Assembly: GCF_030684315.1 (NCBI RefSeq) | Contig: NC_081369.1 | Coordinates: 9,400,035-9,464,034, forward strand | Reading direction: 5' to 3' | Origin: Stegostoma tigrinum | Taxonomy: Eukaryota | Length of the DNA stretch: 64,000 nt | Shown: positions 3,527 through 59,916 of the stretch, one piece after another | How positions within the stretch are numbered: the stretch's first letter is position 1 | Layout of the letters: each line of letters opens with the position of its first letter | The notes under the pieces: generated by a model | Seen by the model: the letters and a program-made list of their open reading frames with translations, nothing else | The model's database searches: none | Told to the model about the DNA's origin: nothing | Made by a program: the position numbers and the translations under genes

Positions 3527-3814
3527 TTGCCGCTCGTATGACTCAATTTCTGCGATCGCCCAATGTAACAGTAAGACAGACCGTGACTTTTCACTGCTCG
3601 TTGCTGCTATTCCGAGGTAGGAACCAAGTCGTGGTGCATTGGTGGAAAGCTGGTGACCAGGAATTCTTGAACTCAAAACAAGATTCCTGGAGAGTGTTTC
3701 ACATTGAGAACGAAGCCAGCGCAAACCCACAATGTGCGTTTTAGAAATGTTGGCATCTGTTATTGCAGTTTGAACAGACTGGAAATGGAATCGGCATACA
3801 GCTGAATGTAAGCG
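3527..3814 (+). pseudogene. Frameshifted VJ-type Ig V exon (paralogue 1)
   Basis: Acceptor ttttggcaacag; RMTQ...QTVTFHCSL...VVHWWKAGDQ...FHIENEASA / NVRFRNVGICYCSL / TGNGIGIQLNVS read across two frameshifts; donor decayed to G|GAGAGT. Possible decayed leader at 3344-3396. Confidence 0.85.
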
Positions 3815-3823
3815 GAGAGTAAT

Positions 3824-42412: not shown

Positions 42413-43426
42413 TTTGTCACGCCTCCACAGCCTGCTGTGGCAATGATTCCATACATTCTCCTTTCTCTGGATGAAGAAGTCGTGCCTTAATTCCTTTCTA
42501 AAGGACTTTTCTCTAAGGCTGTGTCCTCGGGTCCTAGTCTCTCTTGCCTTCCGGAGCATCTTCTCATTGTCCAGACTGTCCACGCATAACTCACTGCAGA
42601 CTCCAGCTACTGTCACACATATGGCCCCTGAGATATGAAGCTAACAGTGCAGAGGCGAGCCAGCTCTTGATTAAATTATGTAGAATCACAGTGTAAACAT
42701 TGTAACTGTTACTATTCAGGAAGATTGTTCTCTGAAATCCTCTTGGAAACATCGAGACAAATATTAAAACTAACCTGATTTCTTGTGAATACTTTATATC
42801 ACCAACGATTGGAAATTCTCTACAAACATTCTTTCTTTTGTATTCCATTGGTTTTACACAAGAAATTAATTGCAAAGAAACTCCATAAATTCGATCAAAA
42901 TGTATGTATCTGCACCTGCTTATCATTGATACTTATCTGTCTTGTTTTTGTGACCACTGCCTGCCATCTTTGCACCCAGGCTATTATAATAAGTTGATAT
43001 CCTTATGCCTGCACACAGATGTCTCCCAGTGTAGAGTCCAATCTCAAAAGCAAAACATCACACAAGCAGAGAAGGAATGCTTGAGAATATGATGCCTCTC
43101 ATTTTCAGAAAATTACAATAACACATTTGTTTTAAAAAAGTGAAAACAATGGATTAAGCCACCTGGTTACATAGAATCTGCAATACTGCCATTCAATTTT
43201 CAATAGTAATTTTATGAGATTGCCTAACTAGCAATCCCTTTCATAGATTCTGAACGTGTGTCTCTTTTATGAAGACCTTACGTTGAATATTACCTCAATT
43301 ATGTTTTGCCATCCGGTTTTATGGCAATTTCAACAGACATACTGAAAACCCCAATTTAGCTAATCAATGTTGCAATATTTTTCAGGCAACACTCACCATA
43401 ATGCAATCATTCTTTCACTCTTGTAG

Positions 43427-43540
43427 CTAGTGTAGGAATACTACTTCACTTTGGGACTATTGGGAGTGTGGCCACTGGACTAATGTTCCTGGCACTCATG
43501 ATCAATGCTGAAACGTGGTCTCAACTGATGAATAACAATG
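43427..43540 (+). pseudogene. Probable decayed transmembrane exon
   Basis: Acceptor tttcactcttgtag; phase-1 ASVGILLHFGTIGSVATGLMFLALMI, then LKR in a shifted frame; about 114 nt with a degenerate donor. Confidence 0.45.
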
Positions 43541-46189
43541 TTAAGTTCTACTGTACCCTCACCATTTAAATGCAAACTTCAGTGTCAGTGATATCTTCTT
43601 ACCTGAACTGGAAATGAGAATTCAAATGAAAGTTAACATTGATAACGATATTATCTGTCATCAGCGAATGTCAATTATTTTGAAATACAGTTTACGCGAA
43701 TGGTATGATTGCAGAATATTAAAAAAACTTTCATAGCAATATCGATAGTTATTTGTTTGATAAAGATGTCCCTATTGAAAGATGTTAAATTAAGTGTGCC
43801 CTCCTCTACAATCAGTTGCTAACTCATTCTGTTGTGGTTCAAACCCGAAAGTGAAGAAGGACGGGTGTCTGGGAAACGTAAACTGTAAAACAATGCAATA
43901 TCTCAACTTATCCATCTTACAATGCCAACGGGACTGATCTCCCATACTAACTCCAATTCTCTACCTATCTCCATATTTGTTGACACTTTATTCATTTTGT
44001 TGTCGTGTGTTTTGCAAGAAAGTTAAATATTTCTCGTTTATCTCGATGTACCTGTGAGATATTGGCGATGAGGTGATTGGGCAGGACGGGGTTACAGTCA
44101 GAGATTTTTTACGGTCGCCGATGGAATTTAGAATAGAACGGCTGATACTCAAAATAAGCAGTGTCTCATTCGAACATCTACAACTAAGTTAAGGAGAAAC
44201 TTACTTGGTTTGAATATCTACAAACTTGACTACCTCAGCCAGTTGCGTTTGCTCTATTCTTAAATAAATTAAACACTATGATAGAAAATTTCTGAACTTT
44301 CAGGAATTAAAGAATCTGTACTGCGTGGCAGTAACTGCAGCTGAGGTGGAAAACCAGGCATGTTTGCCTGCAGAAGGAGAAACTGTCTTCAGGGGACTTA
44401 TTATCCGGTCTAGGTCTAAACGGTTACTGTGCTGTGTTTGCTCAGTGCAAAACCATTTCAGCCAATAATCAAGAGAAACCTCGGCGAACCTTTCTCTGGA
44501 GCTACAGAGATATCAGGCAGGCTAAGAACCCCCGAAGTTTATGCAATGAAGACGTTCAGCAATGAGATGGTTTTCCTTGGTCCGCAAACGATGCTCTCTT
44601 ATATTTCAAGTAAAATGCAGAACAAAAACCTCCAAGTTGCGATAAGATGCAGCTTTGCAAAACCCTTGTTGCAATCCAGACTTGTCAATCATTTTTGACA
44701 TTGCTTTCACGTTTCATGTGTATTTGCATTCGGGAATATGAGAACTAAGTAATTATTTCAAATATTACTACATTTTATTTATTCCAGGATATGCAAGACA
44801 TAAACAAGAGCTGGCAGATTCTGAAACGGCAACGAATTTTGCTGTAATAGAAATAGTATAACATAGTCATTCCAGAATATTTCAATCTACTGGCTGAAAT
44901 ATCGGTCAGCTGACAGTAACTCTTTCAAACTATGGTGAGAAATGATGGTGCAAGTAATTATTTTTTAATATTTCATGGAAATTTTCCGGGTTACTTAAAG
45001 ATGTGCCGAGGTACTAACTGATTGTTAATAAAACGATGCTTCCTCAGGTTTGAGGAAGCATATCTTAATATTGTAAATTTGCTGCTCATGTCAGTAATAC
45101 TGCCCTCTTGCGTAAACGCTGGCAGTATTATATATTATCTATAGGCAGCACAGTGCTCCAATGATTGCATTTGTGTACACATGTATAGGTTATCGTTTGT
45201 GCGCCTCATCTCAAATTCTTGTCAACTCTTGTTGCAAATTGGTGAAAACCCACAGCTGTATATTTGTATTCTGGCACGTGTAGGGATAATGTACTAAGGC
45301 CGTGCATTTTATTGCATTGGATTTGATCAGAAGCAAGAAGTTATCCCGCCACAAATATGAAGGGGAAAAATACATTTATGCCAAGGTTGATTTATTGGCA
45401 TAGATCACCAACATACGATTAACATTTATGCAAATATGAAGGCAATGGATTCTTGTGGATTGACACTGTTCACAACTGTGGCGTTTTGCAACCCTGCTGA
45501 TAACAACTTCGAAGCACTGCCTAAAGCTGTGAAAATGATAAATTGGGTATATTATTATGAAACATTGGATTTGCAAGAAAGTGCAAAAATTAAGAGAAAT
45601 ATTCGAGAATGTGCCCAATTGTAGATAAACAAGGGAAAGTGGACTACTGACACTGTCCACGTGGAAACAATATAAATGAGTAAAAAACGTATACGCGCAA
45701 ACGTCATTCTATTGTTGTCGATATTTTCTGATCAATATGTTAATGAATGATATTACACAACCTCTTTAGCAGGAGGGACTTGACGCCAAACATCTAGCCC
45801 AGTAGCAGCAATACCGACATTTCTCCACAGGAGATTTTGGCTTTATTTCTGTGTTGTGTCATGTCAACTCAGGTTTGTGAATAGTGGGTGATAACATTCA
45901 ACAGAGATATAAGACATTACATTGATGTCATTACATGGAACGTTATCTACAGTAAAACGAAAATGCATTCAAGTATTTGTTTTATGTTCCGCTAAAGGTT
46001 TTTATGAATGAAAACTTTCTCACAAAATCTACTGCTATAATTTTTATATGAACTGAGTCAATATATTTCTCTGATTGTGGTTTCGCAATACTATGGTATT
46101 ATCTGGTTTGTACAAAGTTCTGAATTCAACAAACACAGAAGCTATGCTACCTGCTAAAAATCAGCATGCTACCTACTGAAAATCAGGGT

Positions 46190-46548
46190 AGCTGATGGCC
46201 TGGTGGAATTATCATCAGACTGTTAATCTAGAGACCCAAACCATGTTCGGGGGACCTGGGTTCGAATTTCCCCACGTCAGATGGTGGAATTTGAACTCGA
46301 TACGTACTTGGAGTTACGAATCTAATGGCTATGAGTACATTGTCGATGGTGAGTTGAAAAATCCTTCTGGTTCACTGATGCCCCTTAGGCAATGAAACTA
46401 CCGTCCTTACCTGGTCTAGTGTACATGTAACTACAGCCCCACAGCAATGTGGCTGACTCTTAACTGCCCTCTGGACAATTAGGAATGCGTAATAGATGCT
46501 GACCTAGCCAGTGATTCTCGCATCGTGTGAATTAATAATAATAATAAA
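46190..46548 (+). mobile_element. tRNA-derived SINE of a second family (SacSINE1/DeuSINE-like)
   Basis: Box B GGTTCGAATTT, body gcaatgtggctgactcttaactgccctct, (aat)n tail. Decayed relatives near 35.1-35.4 kb and 40.05-40.27 kb. Confidence 0.7.
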
Positions 46549-49509
46549 TCCTGCTTTTTTCCCCTTGGTAAGTGATATTCTCAGGTCAGTGATTTGATTT
46601 CTGTTGTATTTTGCAGTCTTGTGACTGCCAGTCTTGTTTATATTACTGATATGAGATGGTTGAAGGTTCAGTCTATGGAACAATCCAAGAATCTCCTGTT
46701 TCCGATTCCCCCCCCCCCCCCACCTTTTTGCTAATTTTAACCGTTTACCTAACTCTTATGTATTTATGTGGAATCATAAAATATCAAACCTTTTCTGGGA
46801 TCTGACACTTTTCAAAGAATCATCCAAATGATTCCTCAAACAGCGCAGTTTTCTAATTTTGAATTTATAACTAATTCTTCACGTATTCTGCTTGCAATAG
46901 CGATTACACTTCGGTATTCCTTTGCCCTTTAATTAAAGAATCAATTGAATCGACTTAAGTTATGTGCCATTTTAAACTATTGTTAATTCAAAGTTATTAT
47001 GATACAAAGTAAAACGAAATTTCTTTACTGGAATCTATGAAGCTATGATTTGATTGGGCACAGCTCTCTGCCAAAGGTACCGTGTTTTATTTTGCCACAA
47101 TAGATTTTCCTGTAGCCATCTATTGTTTCAATATCAAAGCGATACAAATCATCGTGACAATGCATGAACAGAAGTGGTGGTCTACGTTAAAGACCACTGG
47201 ACCACTGGACATATTGACCACATCAATATGTGGGTGAAATGTTAGCTTGACAGAATGCTGGATATTTTTTAACTTGATTGACGTAATCATCCGTAAAACC
47301 AATATCGACAATGGTCAGATGCTAATCAAGCTTGCTAGTTGCTAACCAACCAACACATTTAATGCTAAGTTTAATTTTGTTTATAGCAGGATACTGACAA
47401 TATGTCTGGTGACGAATAGTAACAGCTTTGCCTCTGCATGTTTTGGTACTATATCTACACACACTGTTCAGATCCTACAAATATGCCATTTCATACTTTT
47501 CTGTCTAAATTTTCAAAATGTTTTCTTGATATTGCCGAAAATGTGAGTGCTTCAGCTTATATGATATCGATTTCCATTTTAGACAATCCATTTCCTTGTT
47601 CAAAACATTTTGACTGCTTGTGGAGAATTGGTCTGTTTTCTTATCCCAATCCCAATATTCCTCTGTGCATAGCGTATTTTAAATTTAACCATGTTTGGGT
47701 TTGGTTCGTTATATAAATTGCAGCCTCTCTAATATTCGGCGCTGAGGACAAGTCAGCACATTTCCTTTACTCAACAAGAAATTTTAGAGTAAGACAAAGT
47801 ACTGACATAAAGAGGGAACGTTATTGACAAGTATCGTATTGTTAACAACAAACCTATCCTTAATAAATCTATTACAGGAAGATCAACCTCTTCTGAGGAG
47901 AAAAAAGATGAAAAATCAGAAGTCTTTTAACTTTAACACACTTTGTTCAAGTGACAGTTTAATGAAAAAAAGTAAGAAATCACAAGTTATCCCATTTACT
48001 GTTCTGATTCAGTAATTAATCTACACACACCGAAGCTGCTCGAACTGACTGTCTTCCTTGAACCACTGCAATTGGCTGATTTCTCTTTACGATGATAATG
48101 ACCTCGATTTCAAGAGAATCCTCTTTAGGAACCACTTCGCAGCGATAAAAATGACTTTTGATGGTCACCAACTCTCACACATATTTGGGAAGAGTTTCAA
48201 AGAAGGCAAGTGTAATAATTGGCTATTGCATTGAACGTTTTAGGAGGCTTACACTCAAATCTGAATATGAGTTTGCTACTTTAACATATTGAGGCAGTTC
48301 TTTGCAAGTTCGATTAACGAGAGGACACCTTATGAAAACATTAAGAAAGCGTTTCTTTGGGAACTTCACGGTACAACGCGAATGCGATGTTTGACTTCGC
48401 AAGAGAATTAGGACCAGAGGAGCATAATTTCAGGGTACAGGAATGGTCATTTAAGACACACATTAGATCTTTTTTTCATCCAGAGGGCAGTGAATCTCTG
48501 GAATTCTGTGCCACAGAGCATTACTGAGGCAAACTGAAGGCTGACACAGGCAGGTATCTGGACCAAGGGCTAAAGGAACATGGCAAAAGGAGAACTCGAG
48601 GATTAACAGGCCAACAATGATCTAATTGATTGGAATGATAGAGTCAATGGGTTGAATGGCTTAATTCGGCTGTTATGATTTATAATTGATTAAGTTTTGA
48701 GCAGGAGGAATAGACAGACATGAGCATTTCATGAGAGAGAAAGCAAATACTGACATTACATGATGTAATAAAAATACACTTTAGCTATAGAAATTGGAGA
48801 AAATTACAGTCATGAAGTCCATCAAGGAAATTTTAAAGTTTCTATTGATTCTCCTTATGGAATAGGAAGAAAAGAATGTGAAGGTATTGATATGTCAATT
48901 GACATATCATTGGGTGAAATGAAGTGGCAAATGCCACTTGGATATTGCCTCTGCAGAACAGATGGCAGATAGAATATTTGCAATTTTGTATCCCCATCGA
49001 AGAGGTTTATATGAATTGTGATGCAATGAGCAAGCTTGTATCGAGTGCATGCGTCTTAGTTCCTGAAGCATGCTGGCAAAAATATCGAAATCCAAAGACC
49101 GAAAATGTCAGGGATCAACATGAAACGACCTAGACACAATAGCCGACATGATGCTGTCACCATCTCAATATGGCATAAAAACAATTAATGTACAGCAGCA
49201 TTGACTGGATGAGTATGGAAGCGATGTATCTCCAAATAAAACACGAGACAAAGCATGACCAGCAGGTGGTGCTAAGTGCTTTATATCTGGCCATTTGGAA
49301 CAATCTAAGAAATATCATGAAGAACAACAACTGCAAAACCTCAGTGAAGAAAGGCCAGGGGAAAGAAAATCCAGTTTAATTGAAATGAATAAAAACAAAT
49401 ATGATTCCAAGGAATTACTGAGACAGGATAAGGAGAAAGACAACTTTCCTAGGTAAAGTCAAACAGAATGAAACCAGAAAATAGATCATCATCTTAAAGT
49501 CGCAGTTTA

Positions 49510-49817
49510 ATTTTAGATTACCTACAGTGTGGAAACAGGCCCTTCGGCCCAACAAGTCCACACCGCCCCTTGGAACATCCCACCCAGACTCATCCCCCTA
49601 TAACTCACACACTCCTGAACACTATTAGCAGGGCGAATCCACCTAGCCTGTACATCTTTGGACTGTGGGAGGAAACCGGAGCACCCGTAGGAAGCCCACG
49701 CAGACACCAGGAGAATGTGCAAACTCCACACAGACGGTTACCCGAGGCTGGAATCGAACCCGGGTCCCTGGTGCTGTGAGGCTGCAGTGCTCACCACTGA
49801 GCTACCTTGCCGCCCCA
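49510..49817 (-). mobile_element. HE1-type SINE, near full length
   Basis: tRNA-like head with A and B boxes, conserved core, and a CR1-like 3' tail (ggccgaagggcctgtttcc). Confidence 0.9.
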
Positions 49818-49859
49818 AAACGAGATTCCTCGAAGCTCAGCCCTAACCAGGGCAGTAAC

Positions 49860-49932
49860 TGGCTGCACCCGGAGTTGAACTCGGATCGCAGAGCTCAGAA
49901 GCCAGCGTGCTGACCACTATACCACAGCTGCC
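49860..49932 (-). pseudogene. tRNA-Gln(CTG)-like pseudogene or SINE head
   Basis: GGCAGCTGTGGTATAGTGGTCAGCACGCTGGCTTCTGAGCTCTGCGATCCGAGTTCAACTCCGGGTGCAGCCA aligns colinearly with vertebrate tRNA-Gln, but the acceptor, anticodon and T stems are mismatched. Confidence 0.6.
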
Positions 49933-50309
49933 AGATTCTGTCGTACAGGCAAGCACTTTACCATCGCTGATGTGTGTGACAGTCAGGCAAATTAATACAA
50001 AGATAACAAGATAGACGTGTTGAAAATATAAATAGAAATAACTGAACATGAGTTAGAAGCCAATTCAGGGACATCTTTGCAGAGTGGCCACGTTTGGTAA
50101 CTCCATATTCAAGGGTTTTCAGTCTCCTGGAAGAATAGGCAAAATTGTAAAGGAGATGAAGTAGTTTTGTTCACGAAGGCGAGTATCAGTGTACAACCTG
50201 GAGTGGATTCAGTTCAAGTGAAAATGCAAAATAGCACGGCAAAGACTTCATGGCTGGGGCTTTTCTACATGCCACTGATTTGCTTCACTATTGGGCATTT
50301 TGCGCTGTA

Positions 50310-50975
50310 AGTACAGTAGACTAGATTCGGAGAAGCGGTGCTTCACTTGGAAGGTGTGTCAGAGACCTTGGATATTGAGGAGGAAGGAAGTAAATGGTCA
50401 GGCATTACACCTTCTGTGCACAAGATGAAGGGTCTAGGCCTGAAACGTCAGCTTTTGTGCTCCTGAGATGCTGCTTGGCCTGCTGTGTTCATCCAGCTCC
50501 ACACTTTGTTATCTGGCACGTAAGTAAGCGACTGGTTCTCGCATCCTGTTGAACGGAGTGGAAATGGCAGTTTACAGACCTTTGGGTGTGGGTTCTGGTG
50601 ATCACAATGTCGTCGCCTCTACATTGCAGAGATTTTTTAATGATTGAGATTAGATTAGATTCCCTACAGTGTGGAAACAGGCCCTTCGGGCCAACAAGTC
50701 CACACTGCCGGTTGAAGCATCCCACCCAGACCCATCCCCCATAACCTGAAGCGCAGACTGAGGAATTGATTTGAAGAACATGTGCGTTTTTGTCTGCAAA
50801 AATGATCTTGAACTTGCTGTTGCCGATCACTTCAATACGCGAGTGTTCGCTTGCGAGTATCTTTGAATCGGGCTTGCTGCAGAGCTCCAGCGAAGTTATT
50901 GCAAGCTGGATGAGTAACATCTCATTTTCTGTCTTGGGACACTGGAGCCCTCAGAACTCAATATAGACTTCAATC
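50310..50975. mobile_element. Decayed Penelope GIY-YIG region fragments with nested family A half element (50424-50513) and SINE
   Basis: Similar to the Penelope 3' region at 56.4-56.8 kb (catctcattttctgtcttgggacactggagccc). Confidence 0.55.
50646..50745 (-). mobile_element. HE1-type SINE 3' fragment
   Basis: (attag)n tail plus cctacagtgtggaaacaggccc, as in the 49.5 kb copy. Confidence 0.8.
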
Positions 50976-53522
50976 CTTTAAAAGGATAAGTACCTTCTCC
51001 CCTCTCCTTACCCCAAACTGCAAACAACATGAGCTGCTATCATAACCAACCCATTGTAAGCTACCAATGGTCCAGGTCATGAGGAAGAAGCTGATTTTGG
51101 AAGAAATGCTGACAAGAGTGTACAAAGTTATTAGAAGTTTTAGTAAAATTGAAACAAAAGAATCACAATGCTCTGTAAAATAGTCTAACGCACCTGCTTG
51201 CATTGTGCCAGGAATTTCCACATTGCTTGATTACAATGAAGATTTTTTCCTGAGCAGGATATTTTGTGATCTAGGTAGTTTAAAATCAATATTGTCAGGG
51301 GCATTGATGCACACATGTAGAGCAGATGAGCCGCGAAGCTGGCCTGCCTGGCTTACAGTTAAGGAAGCTATTGTGCAACACTAGATCGCTACCCCATGTC
51401 CTCCATTGCATCTACACAAATTAAGTGCACGTGTTTTTATGGTTGCATAATTTAGCAAATATTTCGAATTAATGATTCTCCAAAGGGAGAGTCACCCTTT
51501 ATTTGGACGGAGTGCTTCGCACCACTTCTCATAAGGAAAACATGCAGGTTGCGCCCTCGAGATGCAACGTACCGCTGCATTTTGTCTTTTTTTTCTTTTT
51601 CACTATTACTTCATCAGAATTTGTTGCATTTCTCCGCTCAATTCAACGTGTTTTCTGCTCAGTTTTCAGTCTGTCACATCAAACTCAAATGACTCCATTC
51701 GAAGGCGCATGTCTGTTATAAATCCCTATGACAGTGGCTGGTAATATAATCACCATTTCTCGATGGATCCTGCCCTTCGGCATTTCAAACTATTGATAAT
51801 GCTCTGCAGCTTCTCCTCTATTATCCATTACAATCAGGTTGCATTCATTGTCAGGCCGTGGAACAATATCAGAAAGTATAGTTCTGAGAGAAGTTTGTTC
51901 ACCCAGACATTGTGAGCCTGTGGAATATTCTGTAACAGAAAGCAGTTGAATGTTTTCATGAAGGCGTTAGATCCCCTTTTCTGAGGGATAAAGAGGTCAA
52001 AGAGTGTGGGAAGGAAACAGGAACAGGGTATGAATTGGATCATCGGCCACGATCATATTGGATGGAAGAGCAGGCTTGCAGAGCCAAATGGCCTTAACCC
52101 TGCTCCTATCTGTACCAACCTGGGTTTCGAAAAGGCAGAACATATCTAATTTATATGATTATGACTTTACTAAAGAATGGGCAATGTTGATGAGGACAAT
52201 GCGAGTGTTTTGGTATCTGTGTAATTTCTAAACATTTCAAACACTGTTACAAAATAGGGCAGATAACAGGCCCGTTATTCATGGAATCAAAGCAAAATGG
52301 TCGTAGTCGCAGCAATGTCAGATACCAGAGAGAATCGCAAGCATACAATGTCAAATTAAAGGAACACTTTCAAATGGAGTTCTGCAATTGGGAGGACCTG
52401 AGACTATCTGCGCACTGCTTGGTGAAATTGGCAATGTTCAGAGAGCAAATGATTAGTGTGATATCCAATTTCAACGGCGTTACTATAATGATAATAACAG
52501 TGTACCAAGGCAAGGATATTGTGGCGCAGAATTTGCAAGAATGATAAAAAGAATTGAAATTCTTGGCGTTTTGTGGAACGATTTAAATTCCAACTTCAAG
52601 CTGCACTCAATTGATTATTTTAGAAGTGCATTCATTGTCATTAAAAAGAAACGCGGCAATCGACGTGCGCTGCCAAAATCTGCGAAAAGCAATCAGCTAA
52701 AAATATCAGGGAGTCTCTGTTTTTATGATGATCGGAGCATAAATACTAGAAAGAACGCCAATAATTCCACAACTCTACTTTCATAAAATGAACTCAATGG
52801 ATTGCTTAACATTTGTTCGACCTTGCACAAAGTTTAAAGTTGCATTGGAAATCCGGCATCCCTGCCGTTACAGCGTGCCAACGTGTCTGTCCTGGTTTTT
52901 GTGTTGCTTTACAGAACTGTATCTTCCACCCAGAAAATTTTAGCACTGAGGAAAAATTCCAACTCACTGAGAGATTACTTCCCAAAAATTTGCCTGATTC
53001 CATGGATGGAAATGAGTGGTGAAGCCCCGTCTATTGCCGTTCAAGACGAAAAAGTTGAGAATTCAAACCACGAGAGTTCTGAAGGGAATGCATAATGGCC
53101 AACTGAGCCCATTGACAGAAACTCCAAGCATCAAAGCCTCCGATTATCGAAAACGTGAAAACGATGCTACGTGATCAACATCTGTGGTCAAGACCTGGAT
53201 GTCCTCATTAAAACAGTGATGGAGCCAGATCTACCTGCGTTTAGAAAGAATATGGGCATTAGCAGCGTTAGTTAACTCTGCATTTGAAAATCAAATGTCT
53301 TTTGCTCTTTTGCATTACTTGATAAACACGATTTCAGACGTGACATACACACAGAAACTGCAAAATAGCATTGACCATACGAGACTCAAATTACCGACCG
53401 CACTCACAGGATGTTAAACGTCATTGCCACGTATCTGATACAGTGAGCAAACTGGAAACCCGTCTTAGCAGTTACTAAAGCGCGTAGCTGCACAGCGTGG
53501 TTAGAACAAACCATCATTAATA

Positions 53523-53577
53523 ATGCCAGCGAGGATGATTTTTTTCTGCCTGACACTACTCGAGTTTATTCTTGCTG
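53523..53577 (+). CDS. Signal peptide (leader) exon MPARMIFFCLTLLEFILA
   Basis: ATG, hydrophobic core, phase-1 donor G|GTACTT, and a 166-nt intron before the V exon, as is typical of IgSF leaders. Confidence 0.8.
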
Positions 53578-56500
53578 GTACTTTGGTTTTTGATTCACAG
53601 AACTGCTTTAATTCATTAAAGACTTTCGATGCAGCTCCTCCTTCCATTAAATAATCTTAATTCATCTATCTTGTTAAGAACTTAACTCTCCTATCTTTAT
53701 GCCGAATACGACAGTTAACTATGTTTTATTTTGTTTCTGACAGCTGCGGACCACACTTGTTTTAGGGTTACTCAAATACCTAAAAGAGCAGCTGCGAACA
53801 GACGGGAAGACATTACCTTCTACTGTACATTCTCCATTTGTCAGCAAAGTTCAAAGCCAAATGTAATTTGGTGGAAGCAGGTTGGGAATGAACGTGTTCA
53901 GATTGAAGCCAGTGGTAGACAACAATTTGGATTTGAAAATGAAGCAACAGCGTTCCTTAGCTTGCTGCGCGTTGATATCCAAGATTCTGGACATTATCAC
54001 TGCACGGTGAATTACCAAGGAATCGGTCAAAGAAGCGGAACCCCGTCCCAGCTATTTGTGCGTGGTAAGTGAGAGCGACACTGTCTGAAATAATTTGAAA
54101 TAACAAGATATTTCCTGATCGCTGATTTCACCAATATTGGCGGTTAAATCGTGTCCAGTTATCATTTATACAGGAACCTACCCTTGATATTTCAGTTCCG
54201 TTGAAAAAAAGTAAAATTACACGATCAATATCACCGGTAGAAAACTGAAGCTTTTATAAATATTAACAATTTACGCTGTAATTCTAAAGACAGCCTATAC
54301 ACTATGTGCTTTTTGCCGATATACAAAACTTCCGATGTACATAGGCAACAAGAAACCGCTTTGTCAGGCTATTCGTCCACAATTCTTAGTCCCTGGTATG
54401 TTATTGAAGTCGTGTGACTGCCCGACAATTATTTTTTCTGAGATTGAAGATTCTAGAAATTTATTCTCACATTAATTTCACGTCATAATTTGAAAATCAG
54501 CATGAACTTATTTCATGAGTGAAGGAATCGATGCAAAAGAAACACAGTTTGACAGATACAAGTAGGTACAATCACTGACCTAGAATAAATAAAACAACGC
54601 AGAGAATCTGTAGCAATAACAAATTTGCTGGAAAAGCTCAGCAGGTCTGGCAGCATCTGTGGAGGACAAAACAGAGTTAACGTTTCGGGTCCGGTGACCC
54701 TTCCTCAGAACTTAAAGTTCAACTGATTCAATGTGTTTTGTCAATTGAAATGCCTTGTTTTTGAAATCCGACTGATACAGTGATCTTGGGGTAATCGGCA
54801 ATCTGCAACTTCACCGCCGTTATGCACTTGAGCTTAAAAAAAACACCAGGGCAGACGAGCACAATTTGCTTTGTTCCTTTCTTGTGCGCAAGCTCAATTT
54901 AATTAATTTATTCAAATATGCGACATAAGCATTGCGAAGCATTTTGTAGTTTTGTTCTGCCGAGGAAGGCCAAGTATTGGATTTGATAATTCAAGTAAAA
55001 ATGGATAAAAGCCGCTGCCTGGAGAGCTATTTGTTTCATTAACTGAATGCTTGTGCATAAAATTAAGTTGAGAAGAAACTGCACTTCTGAGCATTGTATT
55101 TCTAGGAAAGCATAGCGTCTGTAAATCAGCCTCAAATTTAACAATTTCTGATTTGTTCCAGTAACTTGGCTTTGTTCAATCTCTGCTTGCAGTTGCTCCA
55201 GTCCCACTGAAAATTACGCCCAAGTTTCACGAAGAAAATTCACTTGTGTCTTTGACCCTTCTGTGTGAAACAGCTGCATTTTATCCGGAGGATTTCACCC
55301 TCGCCTGGTATAAAAACGGCACGAAAACTACAGTCGGTATAAATACGAGCAAGGTGCAGAACAGTGAGGGACTGTATGAAGTATCCAGTTCTTTGGTTGA
55401 TCCTCATCCTCCCTCAAGTAATCTCAAGTATACCTGTGAAATATCTCACATCTCCCTCAAGACGCCTGCTGTTGTAACCCACAGTATTTCCACATTTGGC
55501 GGATTCCAAAAAGGCGAGTTAGTTGCTGTCAGTTTTGTTACGAAATGCATCGTAGAATAGTGCAACGTGTGGGCCTAATCCGCAGTGGTTTCATGGAGAT
55601 GTATTTAAATGTATTATACTAAGTTGACATCTCTGTTGTAAGAGCATCAAAACTTATTTGGTATTCTATTTCTTTGACTTTTGAAATAGTAATTATGTTC
55701 AGAATTGAGCTGATCTATCCATTTGTTTCTTCCTATCATTTTGTCCACGTTCACCTTCTTTGCCCAAGCTATGCCTACCTCTTTGTAGGTTACGTGGCAC
55801 AATCCCTCTTCTGTACCTACACTGGTCCTAAACATCACTTTTTCCTCTGTTACATTGATGACTGCATTGCCATCTCCTTGTGCTCCCATGAGGAGCTCGA
55901 GCAGTTCATCCACTTCACCCACAGACTCCCACAGCTACCTGGAATACACCTCCTCCCACCCACCTTCCTGCAAAAATGCCATTCCCTCCTCCCAATTCCT
56001 TTGTCTCTGCCACATCTGCTCCGAGGATGAGGCATTCCACTCCCGTACATCTCTGATGTCCTCGTTTTTCAAGGATCGCAACTTCCCTGCTCAATGGTTG
56101 AGAATGCCCTCGACGGTGTCTCCCGCATTTCCCACAACTCATCCCTCACACATCCTCCCTGCAAAAACAACCAAAACAGAATCCCCCTCATCCTCATGTA
56201 CCACCTCACCAACCTCCTGATCCAATGCATCATCTTCCGACACTTCCGCCATCTGCAATCCGACCCCACCCTTAAAGACGTTTTTCCCACCCTCATCTGC
56301 TTTTTGGAGGGACCACTCTCTCCATGAATCCCTCGTCCGCTCCACACTCCCCTCCAGCGCTACCACACCGACACTTTTCCCTGCAACCACAGGAAGTGCT
56401 ACACCTGCCCCTACACCTCCCCCTTCACCCTCATCTCAGGTCCCAAGAAGACTATCCACATCAAGCAGATGTTCACCTGCACATCTGCTAATGTGGTATA

Positions 56501-59500
56501 CTGATCCACTGTTCCTGTTGTTGCCTCATCTACATCGGGGAAACCACGCGGAGGCTTGGGGACCACTTTGCAGAACACCTATTCTCAGTTCGCACTAAAC
56601 AACTGCACCTCCCAGTTGCGAATCTTTTCAACTTCCACTCCCGTTCCGCAGGTGACATGTCCATCCTGGGCCTCCTGCAGTGCCGCAACGATGCTACCTG
56701 AAGGTTGCAGGAACAGCGTCCTATATTTCACTTGGGAACCCTGCAGCCCAATGGTATCAATGTGGACTTCACAGGCTTCAAAATCTCCCTCCCCCACTGC
56801 ATCCCCAAACCAGTCACTTTCTGGATTACCCCAATCCAGAAATTGAAGTGGACAGTTGAGAAAATGCTTGTGATATCATTCCTCTAAATTTAAGAAAGCA
56901 TAATTAGTAAGTAAGAAAGCTCGAGAACAACAGTATTTTGATTCATGGGGAATTGACTTATCTCATATTCCTACCTTTCCGAAACAGTCCTTTGTGTTCC
57001 ATAAATTGACAATCTATTCCAGAGATTGATTCAGAATTTGCCATGTTGGATCAAGAATTCACTTCGATATTTAACAGAAATAATCTTTGGCAGTTCAGCT
57101 TTTTCATTGTCCTTGAATAGCGCTGTGCAGTTGAAAGTATCATCACATTTTAAGCAAAGAACTAAAGTGACAATATTTTTAATTTAATGATCACATGCAA
57201 ATAATGTCTTCTTTATCCTGCAGACAGTATCAACAATTCACTGGTCATCTGGCCTTCAGTTCGTTATGTGATTTTCTCGGCGCTTGTTGTAATTCTGTTC
57301 GTGTTTGGGACTACAAAGTACTTGAGGATATCAGAAGTAAGGTCTACTATCAAAGCTTGCTTTTCGCACAGGGCCTGGGTTCATTTGCCATTTCTGGAAA
57401 ACAAGCAGGATACTTATTAGGGATAATTCGAATTGGTTGAAGACTGAAAAATGCAATCATTTTGTTCTTTTTTCCCCCGCAAACGTGGATTGCTCCAAAG
57501 CCACTTAAAAACACAAGAAGGTTCTTGGAAACATGAGTGAACCATTCAGCCCCTTTGGGCCTGTTCTGCCATTCAAAGAGATCATGGTTGATGAATGGCT
57601 TAACTCTATATCCTTGTCCCTAAACACTTTGCTTAACAAAAATAAATCGATCCCAGATTTAAAATTAAAATTAACTTCTATTTGTTGAAAAGTCTTGCAA
57701 ACATGTGCATAGAAGAGCTTCCTCACATCTTTCTTGAATGATCTTGTTGCAAGTTTTAGAGTATGACCACCAGTTCTAGAATCCACAACCAGCAGAAGTA
57801 GTATATGTTACTGACAAAGTGTGAAGAGGGTCTTCGGTCCGCCTCCTCCTCTCTCCCTATTTATTTCAGAACCCTCACCCCATCCCCCTCTCTGATGAAG
57901 GGTCTAGGCCCGAGACATCAGCTTTTGTGCTCCTGAGATGCTGCTTGGCCTGCTGTGCTCATCCAGCTTCACACTTTGTTATTTGGATTCTCCAGCATCT
58001 GCAGTTCCCATTATCACTGATACTATATTACTGACACTCTCTTTTGCTGTTAATGTCGTAAAGCCTTCAATTAGATCATCTCTCAACCTTCTAAATTAGA
58101 GAGAAAATAGTCTTAGTTTGTATAATCCCTCCATGTAATTAAATCCCTAAAGTCCACAATTATCATTCTGGTAATTGTACATCATACTCCTTCCAAGGTC
58201 AATGCACCTTTCCTGTGGTATGCTGCTCAGAACCGTTCACAGCTCACCAAAATGTTTTCAAATGTAAACAATGCTCACGTGTGTTAATTTCCAAAGGCAC
58301 ATTTCAGTTTTCAACATGAGAAATGAAATTTATCACAATAAATATGAAGTAGGTAATTCGATGCTTCTGTCAAGTAATGATTGCTCCTTGAAAGAATGGA
58401 GGATTAATAGCAGATTCTGATGTTGCAACCGTCTGATCTCTGCGAGCAACATAATCAAATGTATTCTGCCTCAACGGAACATTCACATCCTTTCTCTAAT
58501 ACTTTGATTCAGAAAAATGCGCTCATTTTCTGCATGGAAACTGAGTCAATATTTTCATCACTCAATGCAATTATATTTCATTGGTTTGCAGGTAAAGAAG
58601 AATGCACAAGGCAATCAGACTGCCATGTCAATGTGGTAAGTTCATATCATCATCATGCTTGGAGTTTGAAATGTTTGGATCAATGGCAATAATGGAAGAA
58701 ATATACATTAATAATGACAGAACATTTTATATCTATTTATTGAAAGACTATTCATCTGGTATGTGTGTGTTTCAGAGCCAGGTTTGAAGCGCAATTTGTA
58801 CAACTTGTATTACTGATGAAGGTTGGCAAGTGGATCTTCTTTAAAAAAAAACCGTAATCATATCTTTGAGAATGTTGCAAGGTTGAGTCACGTTTTAGGG
58901 TTGAGAACAAATTTACTGTCTAAACCCATTGCATCTAACACTTAACATTATGTTTCAGCATGAATATGAGGAAGTTTGAATTGTTGCATTGAACACTGAG
59001 ATTAACATTGTCTTCATGCAGATATATCTATAATATGGATTCTGCAAGGGATGTCGAGTCTTGGTTAAATATGCTTAGTCCTTGATGTAGAAAATCTTCG
59101 AGACAATGAAAAGGACACTTATTGAAGTGTTGTTCTTGTCCTCACAGGAAGCCATGGCGGAGGTTTCCTGCAATAGACTTAGGCAAAAACAGGAGAACTC
59201 CTAGACATACGTTTGAAATAGAGAAAAACATGCCTATTGAGGTAGGGCGGAGTGGGAGAACACAAAATCAGGATAAAATTGTGATTCAAGATAATAAAAT
59301 GTGAGGCTGGATGAACACAGCAGGCCAAGCAGCATCTCAGGAGCACAAAAGCTAATAAAATGTGAGGCTGGATGAACACAGCAGGCCAAGCAGCATCTCA
59401 GGAGCACAAAAGCTACTTGGCCTGCTGTGTTCATCCAGCCTCACATTTTATTATCTTGGATTCTCCAGCATCTGCAGTTCCCATTATCTCTAAAATTGTG

Positions 59501-59802
59501 ATTCAGCCTGACAATGAAGGCATTTGCTTCTATGGACATTAGCCAAATGTCATTTTGAAGCCTATTTTTGTGTCCTTCTGATTAGTGCTTTGCAGAAAGT
59601 TTATAAAAAAGGCCAATTAATAACATTTCCAAATAATATCTTTACAGCTCTCCATGTTGCTATCGGCAGTAAGATGACATACAGTCCTCTAAAGTTCTCT
59701 GTTTCTGCGAAGAAGGCACAGAGATTGCTTGAGCTGCAGACTGAAAAACAAAACAAAGTAACAGAAGATATCCATGCACAAGCAAGAAATAACAAGGCTT
59801 AA
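53523..59802 (+). CDS. Spliced gene: non-rearranging VJ-C1-TM Ig superfamily receptor (SIRP-like / NCR3-related architecture)
   Basis: Phase-compatible exons 53523-53577, 53744-54064, 55193-55513, 57224-57336 and 58592-58635, followed by either 59148-59304 (336 aa) or 59148-59241 + 59596-59802 (384 aa). Both models are open throughout. Two AATAAA signals at 59895 and 59911. Confidence 0.8.
53744..54064 (+). CDS. Ig V-set domain exon with germline-encoded J-like G strand
   Basis: Acceptor tttctgacag and donor G|GTAAGT, phase 1/1. Motifs FRVTQ, ITFYC, VIWWKQ, AFLSLLRVDIQDSGHYHC, GQRSGTPSQLFVR. Confidence 0.93.
54612..54720 (-). mobile_element. Family B half element in the V-C1 intron
   Basis: ttgctggaaaagctcagcaggtctggcagcatctgtgg...cccttcctcagaac. 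Confidence 0.85.
54675..54712 (-). ncRNA. Minimal type I hammerhead ribozyme (Penelope-type), intact consensus
   Basis: Minus strand AGUU-CUGAGGA-A-GGGUC-ACCG-GACCC-GAAAC-GUU/AACU: both core boxes, 5-bp stem II, 4-bp stem I, and the palindromic AACGUU stem III remnant. Confidence 0.8.
55193..55513 (+). CDS. Ig C1-set domain exon
   Basis: Acceptor ctctgcttgcag. VAPVPLKI...LTLLCETAAFYPEDFTLAWYKNG...GLYEVSSSL...YTCEISHISL contains the C1 hallmarks (CxxxxFYP, W, YxCxxxH). Ends at a GC donor, AAG|GCGAGT. Confidence 0.92.
55755..56812 (+). mobile_element. Penelope-like element fragment (RT + GIY-YIG endonuclease) in the C1-TM intron
   Basis: PSYAYLFVGYV...YIDDC; PTDSHSYLEYTSSHP..CKNAIP.SQFL; LIYIGET.RRL..FAEH; frameshifted. 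Confidence 0.93.
57224..57336 (+). CDS. Transmembrane exon DSINNSLVIWPSVRYVIFSALVVILFVFGTTKYLRISE
   Basis: Acceptor tctttatcctgcag with phase-1 entry matching the C1 exon; hydrophobic stretch followed by basic residues; donor GAA|GTAAGG. Confidence 0.85.
57500..58250 (-). mobile_element. Decayed CR1 3' region in the intron after the TM exon
   Basis: SRTGGHTLKL...FKKDVRK plus 3' UTR; split by a Penelope-derived insertion. Confidence 0.7.
57817..58023 (+). mobile_element. Penelope-derived family A element with about 13-bp TSD
   Basis: TSD TATGTTACTGACA (57804-57816) / TATATTACTGACA (58024-58036); hammerhead core mutated. Confidence 0.85.
58592..58635 (+). CDS. Short (44 nt) cytoplasmic exon
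   Basis: Acceptor ttggtttgcag and donor GTG|GTAAGT. Its length bridges the phase-0 TM donor to the only open frame of the next exon. Confidence 0.6.
59148..59802 (+). CDS. Terminal cytoplasmic exon region, interrupted by a Penelope-derived insertion
   Basis: Acceptor ttcttgtcctcacag; open frame KPWRRFPAIDLGKNRR... The distal segment carries MTYSPL and the decayed motifs IFTAL and IHAQA, stops at 59802, and is followed by polyA signals. Confidence 0.55.
59289..59490. mobile_element. Palindromic family A element with internal 61-bp tandem duplication and 15-bp TSD
   Basis: TSD TAAAATTGTGATTCA at 59274-59288 and 59491-59505; 61-bp unit at 59292-59352 and 59353-59413; ribozyme core deleted. Confidence 0.92.
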
Positions 59803-59894
59803 ATATTTCAAGGCAAAAGATTATTCTTGGACTTGGACTGATCACAATCGTTGGCACTTAGAGCTTCAGGCCTGCACAGTCTCACCTCTGTGCG

Positions 59895-59916
59895 AATAAA
59901 GCATTACCGCAATAAA
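59895..59916 (+). terminator. Tandem AATAAA polyadenylation signals
   Basis: AATAAA at 59895 and 59911, about 100 nt after the TAA at 59800-59802. Confidence 0.5.

Follow-up and report, generated by a model that had tools for sequence, protein, structure and literature searches.

The principle of paired inhibitory and activating receptors is well known from KIR, Ly49, PIR, Siglec and FCGR2C. In activating KIR and Ly49 the inhibitory form is ancestral: a basic residue was gained in the transmembrane (TM) segment, immunoreceptor tyrosine-based inhibitory motifs (or ITIMs) were lost, and the resulting module was spread by recombination (PMC2213150). Paired receptors have homogenised ligand-binding domains, with several Arg forms beside a single ITIM form (PMC3210942, PMC5701461), and FCGR2C arose when FCGR2A and FCGR2B crossed over unequally in a repeat of 82 kb (PMC6786274). 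Here we describe a seven-exon V–C1–TM receptor gene on the + strand of a 64,000-nucleotide window of the zebra shark (Stegostoma tigrinum) genome (contig NC_081369.1, hereafter C19, 9400035-9464034; gene coordinates are given within the window). The gene appears to be a hybrid that joins an inhibitory-type 5' half to an older Arg-bearing TM segment with a decayed tail, and is likely the activating member of a receptor pair, a sequence-based reading to which we assign a probability of about 0.6. Like FCGR2C it combines the 5' part of an inhibitory gene with the 3' part of an activating gene in a unit of about 80 kb (78 against 82 kb), and it resembles the activating half of the KIR, Ly49, PIR-A/PIR-B and Siglec-11/16 pairs. 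It differs from FCGR2C in having its junction ahead of the TM segment, a TM Arg and four tandem hybrids, whereas FCGR2C has C2-type domains and signals through an immunoreceptor tyrosine-based activation motif (ITAM) of its own. Unlike KIR, Ly49, PIR and Siglec it has an unrelated V plus C1 ectodomain and belongs to a cartilaginous fish, and KIR use a Lys with DAP12.

The gene was compared with the paralogue loci L040, L041, L042, L043, L044, L048 and L051, and its two halves were found to have different nearest relatives. The inhibitory partner L040 (RefSeq XP_059507523, here P0155; C19:9.61 Mb, 156 kb downstream of the window gene) has an uncharged TM and three ITIMs or immunoreceptor tyrosine-based switch motifs (ITSMs), VQYSAV, VTYTTL and TEYAAL, and its RefSeq model bears out the exon boundaries, the GC donor behind the C1 exon and the last-exon acceptor among them. 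Identity of the window gene to L040 is 99.2% over the V and C1 exons and 63.9% over the TM and tail exons; in 100-nt steps it stays at 94-100% between 53330 and the 3' end of C1, and is about 65% once a few bases of the following intron have been passed. The V domains of the two are identical and only three residues differ across V and C1; the same V protein is found at four loci, the partner's among them (C19:9609919). The upstream region shares 99.7% identity across 9907 nt with the DNA upstream of the partner (L065), as opposed to only 66-74% with that upstream of the first Arg gene (L064). In the V plus C1 tree the window gene groups with L040 (support 99/98) and in the TM plus tail tree with L051 and L041, all Arg-bearing (support 96/96); exchanging the two groupings is rejected by approximately unbiased tests on 8 rows (p 4.9e-50 and 0.0013).

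The first-pass annotation, which spans the 3' half of the gene, had proposed an inhibitory-to-activating receptor switch with a TM Arg and an eroded multi-ITIM tail. Homologues do carry Tyr at the ITIM positions when aligned with the paralogues, the Arg TM/tail clade is nested among ITIM-bearing genes with the ITIM-bearing L048 as root, and an ITIM tail is by parsimony the probable ancestral state. Because of these tyrosines, this nesting and the retention of the Arg in L041, the core of the proposal, descent from an ITIM-bearing ancestor, holds. The switch did not take place within this gene, however: its Arg TM and eroded tail descend from an older lineage, to which the promoter region, leader, V and C1 were recently joined from the inhibitory partner; the interpretation is therefore borne out in part. 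Erosion of the tail is old, as the loss of 25 nt and the gain of 1 nt in the last exon are common to the window gene and the orphan exon L044, L041 shows overlapping deletions with the same insertion, and synonymous divergence (dS) between window gene and L041 is about 0.42.

The Arg was found where it had been reported, at the N-terminal side of the TM segment, in WPSVRYVIF (57250-57276, + strand), encoded by CGT. Judged by hydropathy only, it lies inside the best 19-residue hydrophobic windows (Kyte-Doolittle 2.0-2.14) and is followed by 17 uncharged residues; it is thus placed within the hydrophobic segment. The corresponding position holds Cys (TGT) in the ITIM-bearing L043 and L042 and Ser in L040, and the Arg is retained in the older paralogue L041 as well as in all five Arg copies of the array described below. 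TM exons with an acidic Asp, which we take by resemblance to be FCER1G-like and CD247-like adaptors, are present in the zebra shark genome.

The tail turned out to be encoded by three exons and not by the single terminal exon of the first-pass annotation, whose quoted strings all occur on the + strand, including the stretch beginning gtttcc at 59163. The 5-nt deletion postulated there is a loss of 8 nt relative to the ITIM-bearing L040, L042 and L043, with the gap placed by MAFFT just 5' of a Tyr codon that reads TTT (Phe) in the window and TAT or TAC in the paralogues. IFTAL (59638-59652), counted as a near-motif, straddles the acceptor TTTACAG, which all six aligned paralogues conserve and at which the partner's RefSeq model is spliced; IFTAL lacks a Tyr homologue. 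MTYSPL (59674-59691) is present and homologous to VTYTTL, but it is no intact tail ITIM: its frame is lost through a 1-nt deletion after the acceptor, it is out of frame in all four splice combinations with the conserved acceptor at 59648, and it is probably untranslated. The His of IHAQA (59770-59784) does align with Tyr in paralogues and other elasmobranch members, in a motif that is mostly YxxA and not an ITIM; the counterpart sits 3' of the stop in the intact partner, and a terminal Tyr aligned to it occurs in 12 of the 23 family records ending in a T/S-E-Y-A-x-L motif (isoforms included). Two decayed tyrosines had been overlooked, one lost where the second cytoplasmic exon ends and one replaced by Ile in the ITSM-like TEYAAL, and so had the single nucleotide deleted from the TM exon 3' of the helix. 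The last exon thus carries three lesions: the single nucleotide lost after the acceptor, 25 nt lost ahead of the ITSM and one nucleotide gained behind it.

A full-exon product with the conserved splice sites would have a 63-residue tail without an ITIM, ending at a stop in the last exon, which places the remnants MTYSPL, TEYAAL and IHAQA in the predicted 3' untranslated region. Loose near-motifs are weak on their own: of 2000 shuffled 69-codon frames, 70% contained one or more and 32% two or more. What had been observed is confirmed in part. Short-read contigs cover the lesion sites of the TM exon and of both tail exons without gaps (four runs from at most two samples, the assembled animal possibly among them; the runs behave as genomic DNA), so these lesions are not assembly errors. 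The juxtamembrane TKYLRI was rejected as a signal: it fits TxYxxI, but lies two residues from the helix, derives from the frameshift and reads AKYLRI in two of the five copies.

The window gene is one member of a tandem array. Copies of the C1 exon lie on C19 at 9222618, 9300575, 9377284, 9455229 (window), 9533418 and 9611370, spaced about 78 kb apart; copies 1-5 have the Arg TM and eroded tail, the inhibitory gene being copy 6. Both the V (92%) and the upstream region of the first copy are more distant, the array being entered in the V-C1 intron of that copy, and the 3' end of the array lies just behind the C1 exon of the last copy. From these end positions it follows that the repeat unit stretches from C1 in an Arg gene as far as V in the inhibitory gene, and that the four middle copies are hybrids, three of which are identical in every exon. 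In each of the five Arg copies the frames of leader, V, C1 and TM are open. Short-read contigs fork at the 3' end of C1 (L040:2168-2197) into both continuations, so both junctions exist outside the assembly; the Arg branch is the deeper one. Depths of the Arg and ITIM branches were 30.7:12 and 68.7:19.7 in two samples (about 2.5 and 3.5, against 5 in the assembly), values that are not copy numbers; the differences between the samples and from the assembly hint at copy-number variation.

A plausible history would start from an ITIM-bearing ancestor in which the Arg arose, likely by a TGT to CGT change, and the tyrosine motifs were lost. The 9.22-Mb Arg gene would have acquired a C1 region near-identical to the one in the 9.61-Mb inhibitory gene, and unequal crossover within the shared C1 tract may have amplified the 78-kb unit, leaving one hybrid per extra unit, four in the assembly. 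The hybrids are predicted to be co-expressed with the inhibitory gene, would bind its ligand or a pathogen mimic of that ligand, and would couple for signalling to an FcR-gamma or CD3-zeta-type ITAM adaptor via the adaptor's TM aspartate.

Whether the Arg half has been maintained was assessed by the ratio of nonsynonymous to synonymous change (dN/dS) and by a crude neutral drift simulation, comparisons that concern short sequences and carry no formal tests. Against L041 the tail has a dN/dS of 1.01 (ancestral frame, 55 codons), as compared with 0.51-0.73 among ITIM-bearing paralogues. The TM exon differs from that of L041 at 25 of 87 nt, yet is open and hydrophobic and keeps the Arg; in 20000 drift runs it stayed open and hydrophobic in 1.4-2.3% and retained the Arg as well in 0.4-0.9%. 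A tail at a dN/dS near 1 together with a TM that retains hydrophobicity and Arg disfavours plain decay. In the ectodomain, five differences from the partner over 212 codons leave dN/dS uninformative, and for V against L051 a value of 1.46 was obtained from 15 changes (significance not assessed).

A wider association between TM Arg and loss of ITIMs was sought in a family set collected by profile search, with members from chimaera, sharks, skates and rays according to source labels. An ITIM-type motif occurs in 2 of 11 Arg-TM proteins and in 32 of 51 others (p 0.016, 62 rows). Independent pairs of Arg against ITIM gave a median p of 0.031 (range 0.008-0.625), and stricter rules applied to 64 of 112 proteins gave p 0.003-0.022; predicted tails in this test may be incomplete. 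Placed on the ectodomain tree, the Arg rows call for 11 changes, a pattern that fits either repeated origin or repeated homogenisation.

Several points weigh against the hybrid as an activating receptor. An initial loose rule with a wide Arg window, under which motifs right at the membrane were counted, yielded no association (9/17 vs 24/44, p 1.0; 61 of 113 proteins), and the strict rules were set after this null outcome. A profile of three Arg exons, a weak search, found no TM orthologue in other sharks, none of 175 candidates scoring. The dN/dS of the TM against L041 is 0.71 over 29 codons only. The hybrids are too young for selection to show, and their open ectodomain frame says little on selection because the ectodomain was recently copied. 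If splicing used an AG further upstream, at 59596, two of the four combinations would bring MTYSPL into frame. The C1 exon ends at a GC donor, the TM exon has a 1-nt deletion of its own, and in RefSeq the array copies are 247-aa models without a TM, the reading frame running on past the C1 donor.

Use of the AG at 59596 would make a bifunctional receptor similar to KIR2DL4 and some rat Ly49, with the frame restored, a 122-residue tail and MTYSPL beside the TM Arg. In a rough scoring with a matrix built from 29-33 acceptors of the receptor family (homologous sites left out of training) this site reached 5.8 and the conserved one a similar 4.7, an open in-frame extension has a chance probability of about 0.06, M-x-Y-x-x-L/I is found in six family records, and the last-exon deletion of 25 nt and the insertion compensate each other. 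The AG is however an old intronic site that also exists in inhibitory paralogues and is unused there in RefSeq, the tail evolves at a dN/dS near 1, and in L041 the homologue of MTYSPL is wholly deleted and no motif of this type remains. We see a slim chance for such a receptor.

The RefSeq models are exactly what would be expected if the main product were a secreted V-C1 decoy, in which the weak GC donor is skipped and 23 intron codons are translated, leaving a soluble ligand-binding part. The same donor is nevertheless present in four of the five distinct paralogues compared and is used, with the same first intron bases, in the RefSeq model of the partner, and the TM acceptor has the top score among the acceptors of the gene; a decoy as main product is quite improbable. 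The GC donor may itself explain why RefSeq omits the TM exon in array copies, and their entry as major histocompatibility complex class II beta-like proteins without a TM is a probable annotation error.

The first-pass annotation had named early pseudogenisation as the alternative to a switch. It fits the conservation of the TM poorly, and what we keep of it as a rival is that the hybrids are by-products of a young segmental duplication, silent or pseudogenes, from an Arg lineage that was once functional. The identity of three of the four in all exons leaves selection no time to show, further single nucleotides are lost in the TM exon and last exon, and the cluster contains several dead genes and orphan exons. 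Activating receptors are moreover often short-lived (PMC2213150). Opposed to this are the intact leader, V, C1 and TM, the conserved splice sites, an upstream region copied from the intact partner and the constraint on the TM since the split from L041. The frameshifts of -1 and -8 nt jointly lead the frame to the last-exon stop, and since stops in last exons generally do not trigger nonsense-mediated decay, the transcript would escape it. On balance we consider non-functional hybrids unlikely and prefer an activating receptor.

The partner recalls SIRP in several respects. Its best feature matches are SIRP-alpha clusters (0.96-0.97), SIRP-alpha is its second match in PDB by sequence (E 7e-14), many homologues are automatically named SIRP-alpha-like, a single-exon VJ is followed by C1, and ITIM and T/S-E-Y-A-x-L/I tail motifs occur in P0155 and many homologues. 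The SIRP ectodomain is V-C1-C1 and SIRP-beta1 has its TM Lys mid-helix; here there is one C1 exon per gene, not two, and the Arg of the window gene lies near the outer membrane face. Among the matches listed for one marker, the SEP domain (PF08059) of NSFL1C, which we take to mark SIRP linkage, hits fall on C5 and C23 only and none on C19. Because of the single C1 and the absence of SEP-gene linkage on C19, membership in SIRP is unsupported. The first-pass annotation had invoked NKp30-type receptors, whose basic TM residue couples them to ITAM adaptors; NKp30 has an N-terminal TM Arg and a single V followed by stalk and TM, without a C1. The unsplit VJ-type exon is a point of likeness, and the C1-set exon between V and TM rules out identity with NKp30 (NCR3). 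UrIg, secreted and with three C1 domains, and UrIg2, with nine or more, were likewise rejected, as the window gene has only one (PMC12227049).

Our literature searches, in which subscription journals were mostly outside coverage, found no description of a shark V-C1-TM family; PRARP, the non-rearranging V-C1 genes of the chicken, and the VJ-C1 genes of Ohta 2019, known to us through mentions (PMC10751288, PMC11599192), may already cover it. We tentatively suggest, at somewhat less than even odds, an undescribed, fast-evolving, non-rearranging VJ-C1 paired-receptor family in cartilaginous fish, with a young, copy-number-variable activating array that has promoter and V in common with a single inhibitory partner. 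If so, it would be the shark counterpart of the 'counterbalance' process of FCGR2C and activating KIR at its youngest stage. If the hybrids are expressed, the rule by which inhibitory receptors repeatedly give rise to activating ones, themselves refreshed through exchange of ligand-binding domains, would extend to cartilaginous fish and to an antigen-receptor-like VJ-C1 architecture. A pair with identical V and opposite signalling halves would also offer a clean handle on the ligand and on FcR-gamma/CD3-zeta coupling in sharks.

Table 1. Features of the hybrid receptor gene, in window coordinates.
Feature	Position	Strand	Remarks
Upstream region, likely promoter	43421..53522	+	Common to inhibitory partner
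Leader exon	53523..53577	+	Matches start of RefSeq proteins P0001 and P0155; 0 differences from partner
Single-exon V(J)-type immunoglobulin (Ig) domain	53744..54064	+	Pfam I-set/V-set
C1-set Ig domain exon	55193..55513	+	PF07654, E 1.1e-10
GC donor of C1 exon	55514-55515	+	Common to L040, L041, L042; used in RefSeq model P0155
Recombination breakpoint	55520..55530	+	Identity to partner falls from 94-100% to ~65% (100-nt profile, alignment); read contigs fork here
TM exon, Arg codon 57262-57264	57224..57336	+	113 nt against 114 nt in paralogues; 1 nt lost behind helix; same in 5/5 Arg copies
First cytoplasmic exon	58592..58635	+	44 nt in 7/7 genes compared; read in shifted frame
Second cytoplasmic exon	59148..59241	+	94 against 102 nt; 8-nt deletion; first-ITIM Tyr to Phe, second Tyr also lost
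Possible alternative acceptor and 52-nt extension	59596..59647	+	Contains start of IFTAL; would bring MTYSPL in frame
Last exon	59648..59916	+	Predicted stop 59675-59677; AATAAA at 59895 and 59911

A candidate exon at 58778-58822 was rejected, as it lacks a counterpart in non-identical paralogues and has a negative acceptor score. Elsewhere in the window, a V-type Ig exon with a frameshift lies within the repeated unit (3540-3820), and an orphan ITIM-type cytoplasmic exon (45302-45385) has Phe for Tyr (VHFIAL, VHYAAL in P0033). Related V-C1 genes on C19 form two clusters, at about 2.1-3.0 and 9.18-10.26 Mb, in which all member counts are lower bounds; the cluster at 2.1-3.0 Mb holds more than 25 related C1 exons. 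The orphan last exon L044 (C19:9198529-9198015, minus strand), with the same -25/+1 indels as the window, stays open in the ancestral entry frame, its ITIM Tyr being replaced by His. L042 (minus strand, about 10.03 Mb on C19) is a decaying inhibitory-type paralogue whose C1, TM exon and ITSM Tyr position are all hit by stops. A second, different kind of Arg TM (IVIARF...IVDH), followed by a very short tail, is encoded at L059:5348-5464 (minus strand, about 9.655 Mb on C19), in a gene with an intact V exon and an apparently frameshifted C1 exon; similar TMs are found in catshark, horn shark, sevengill and bamboo sharks.

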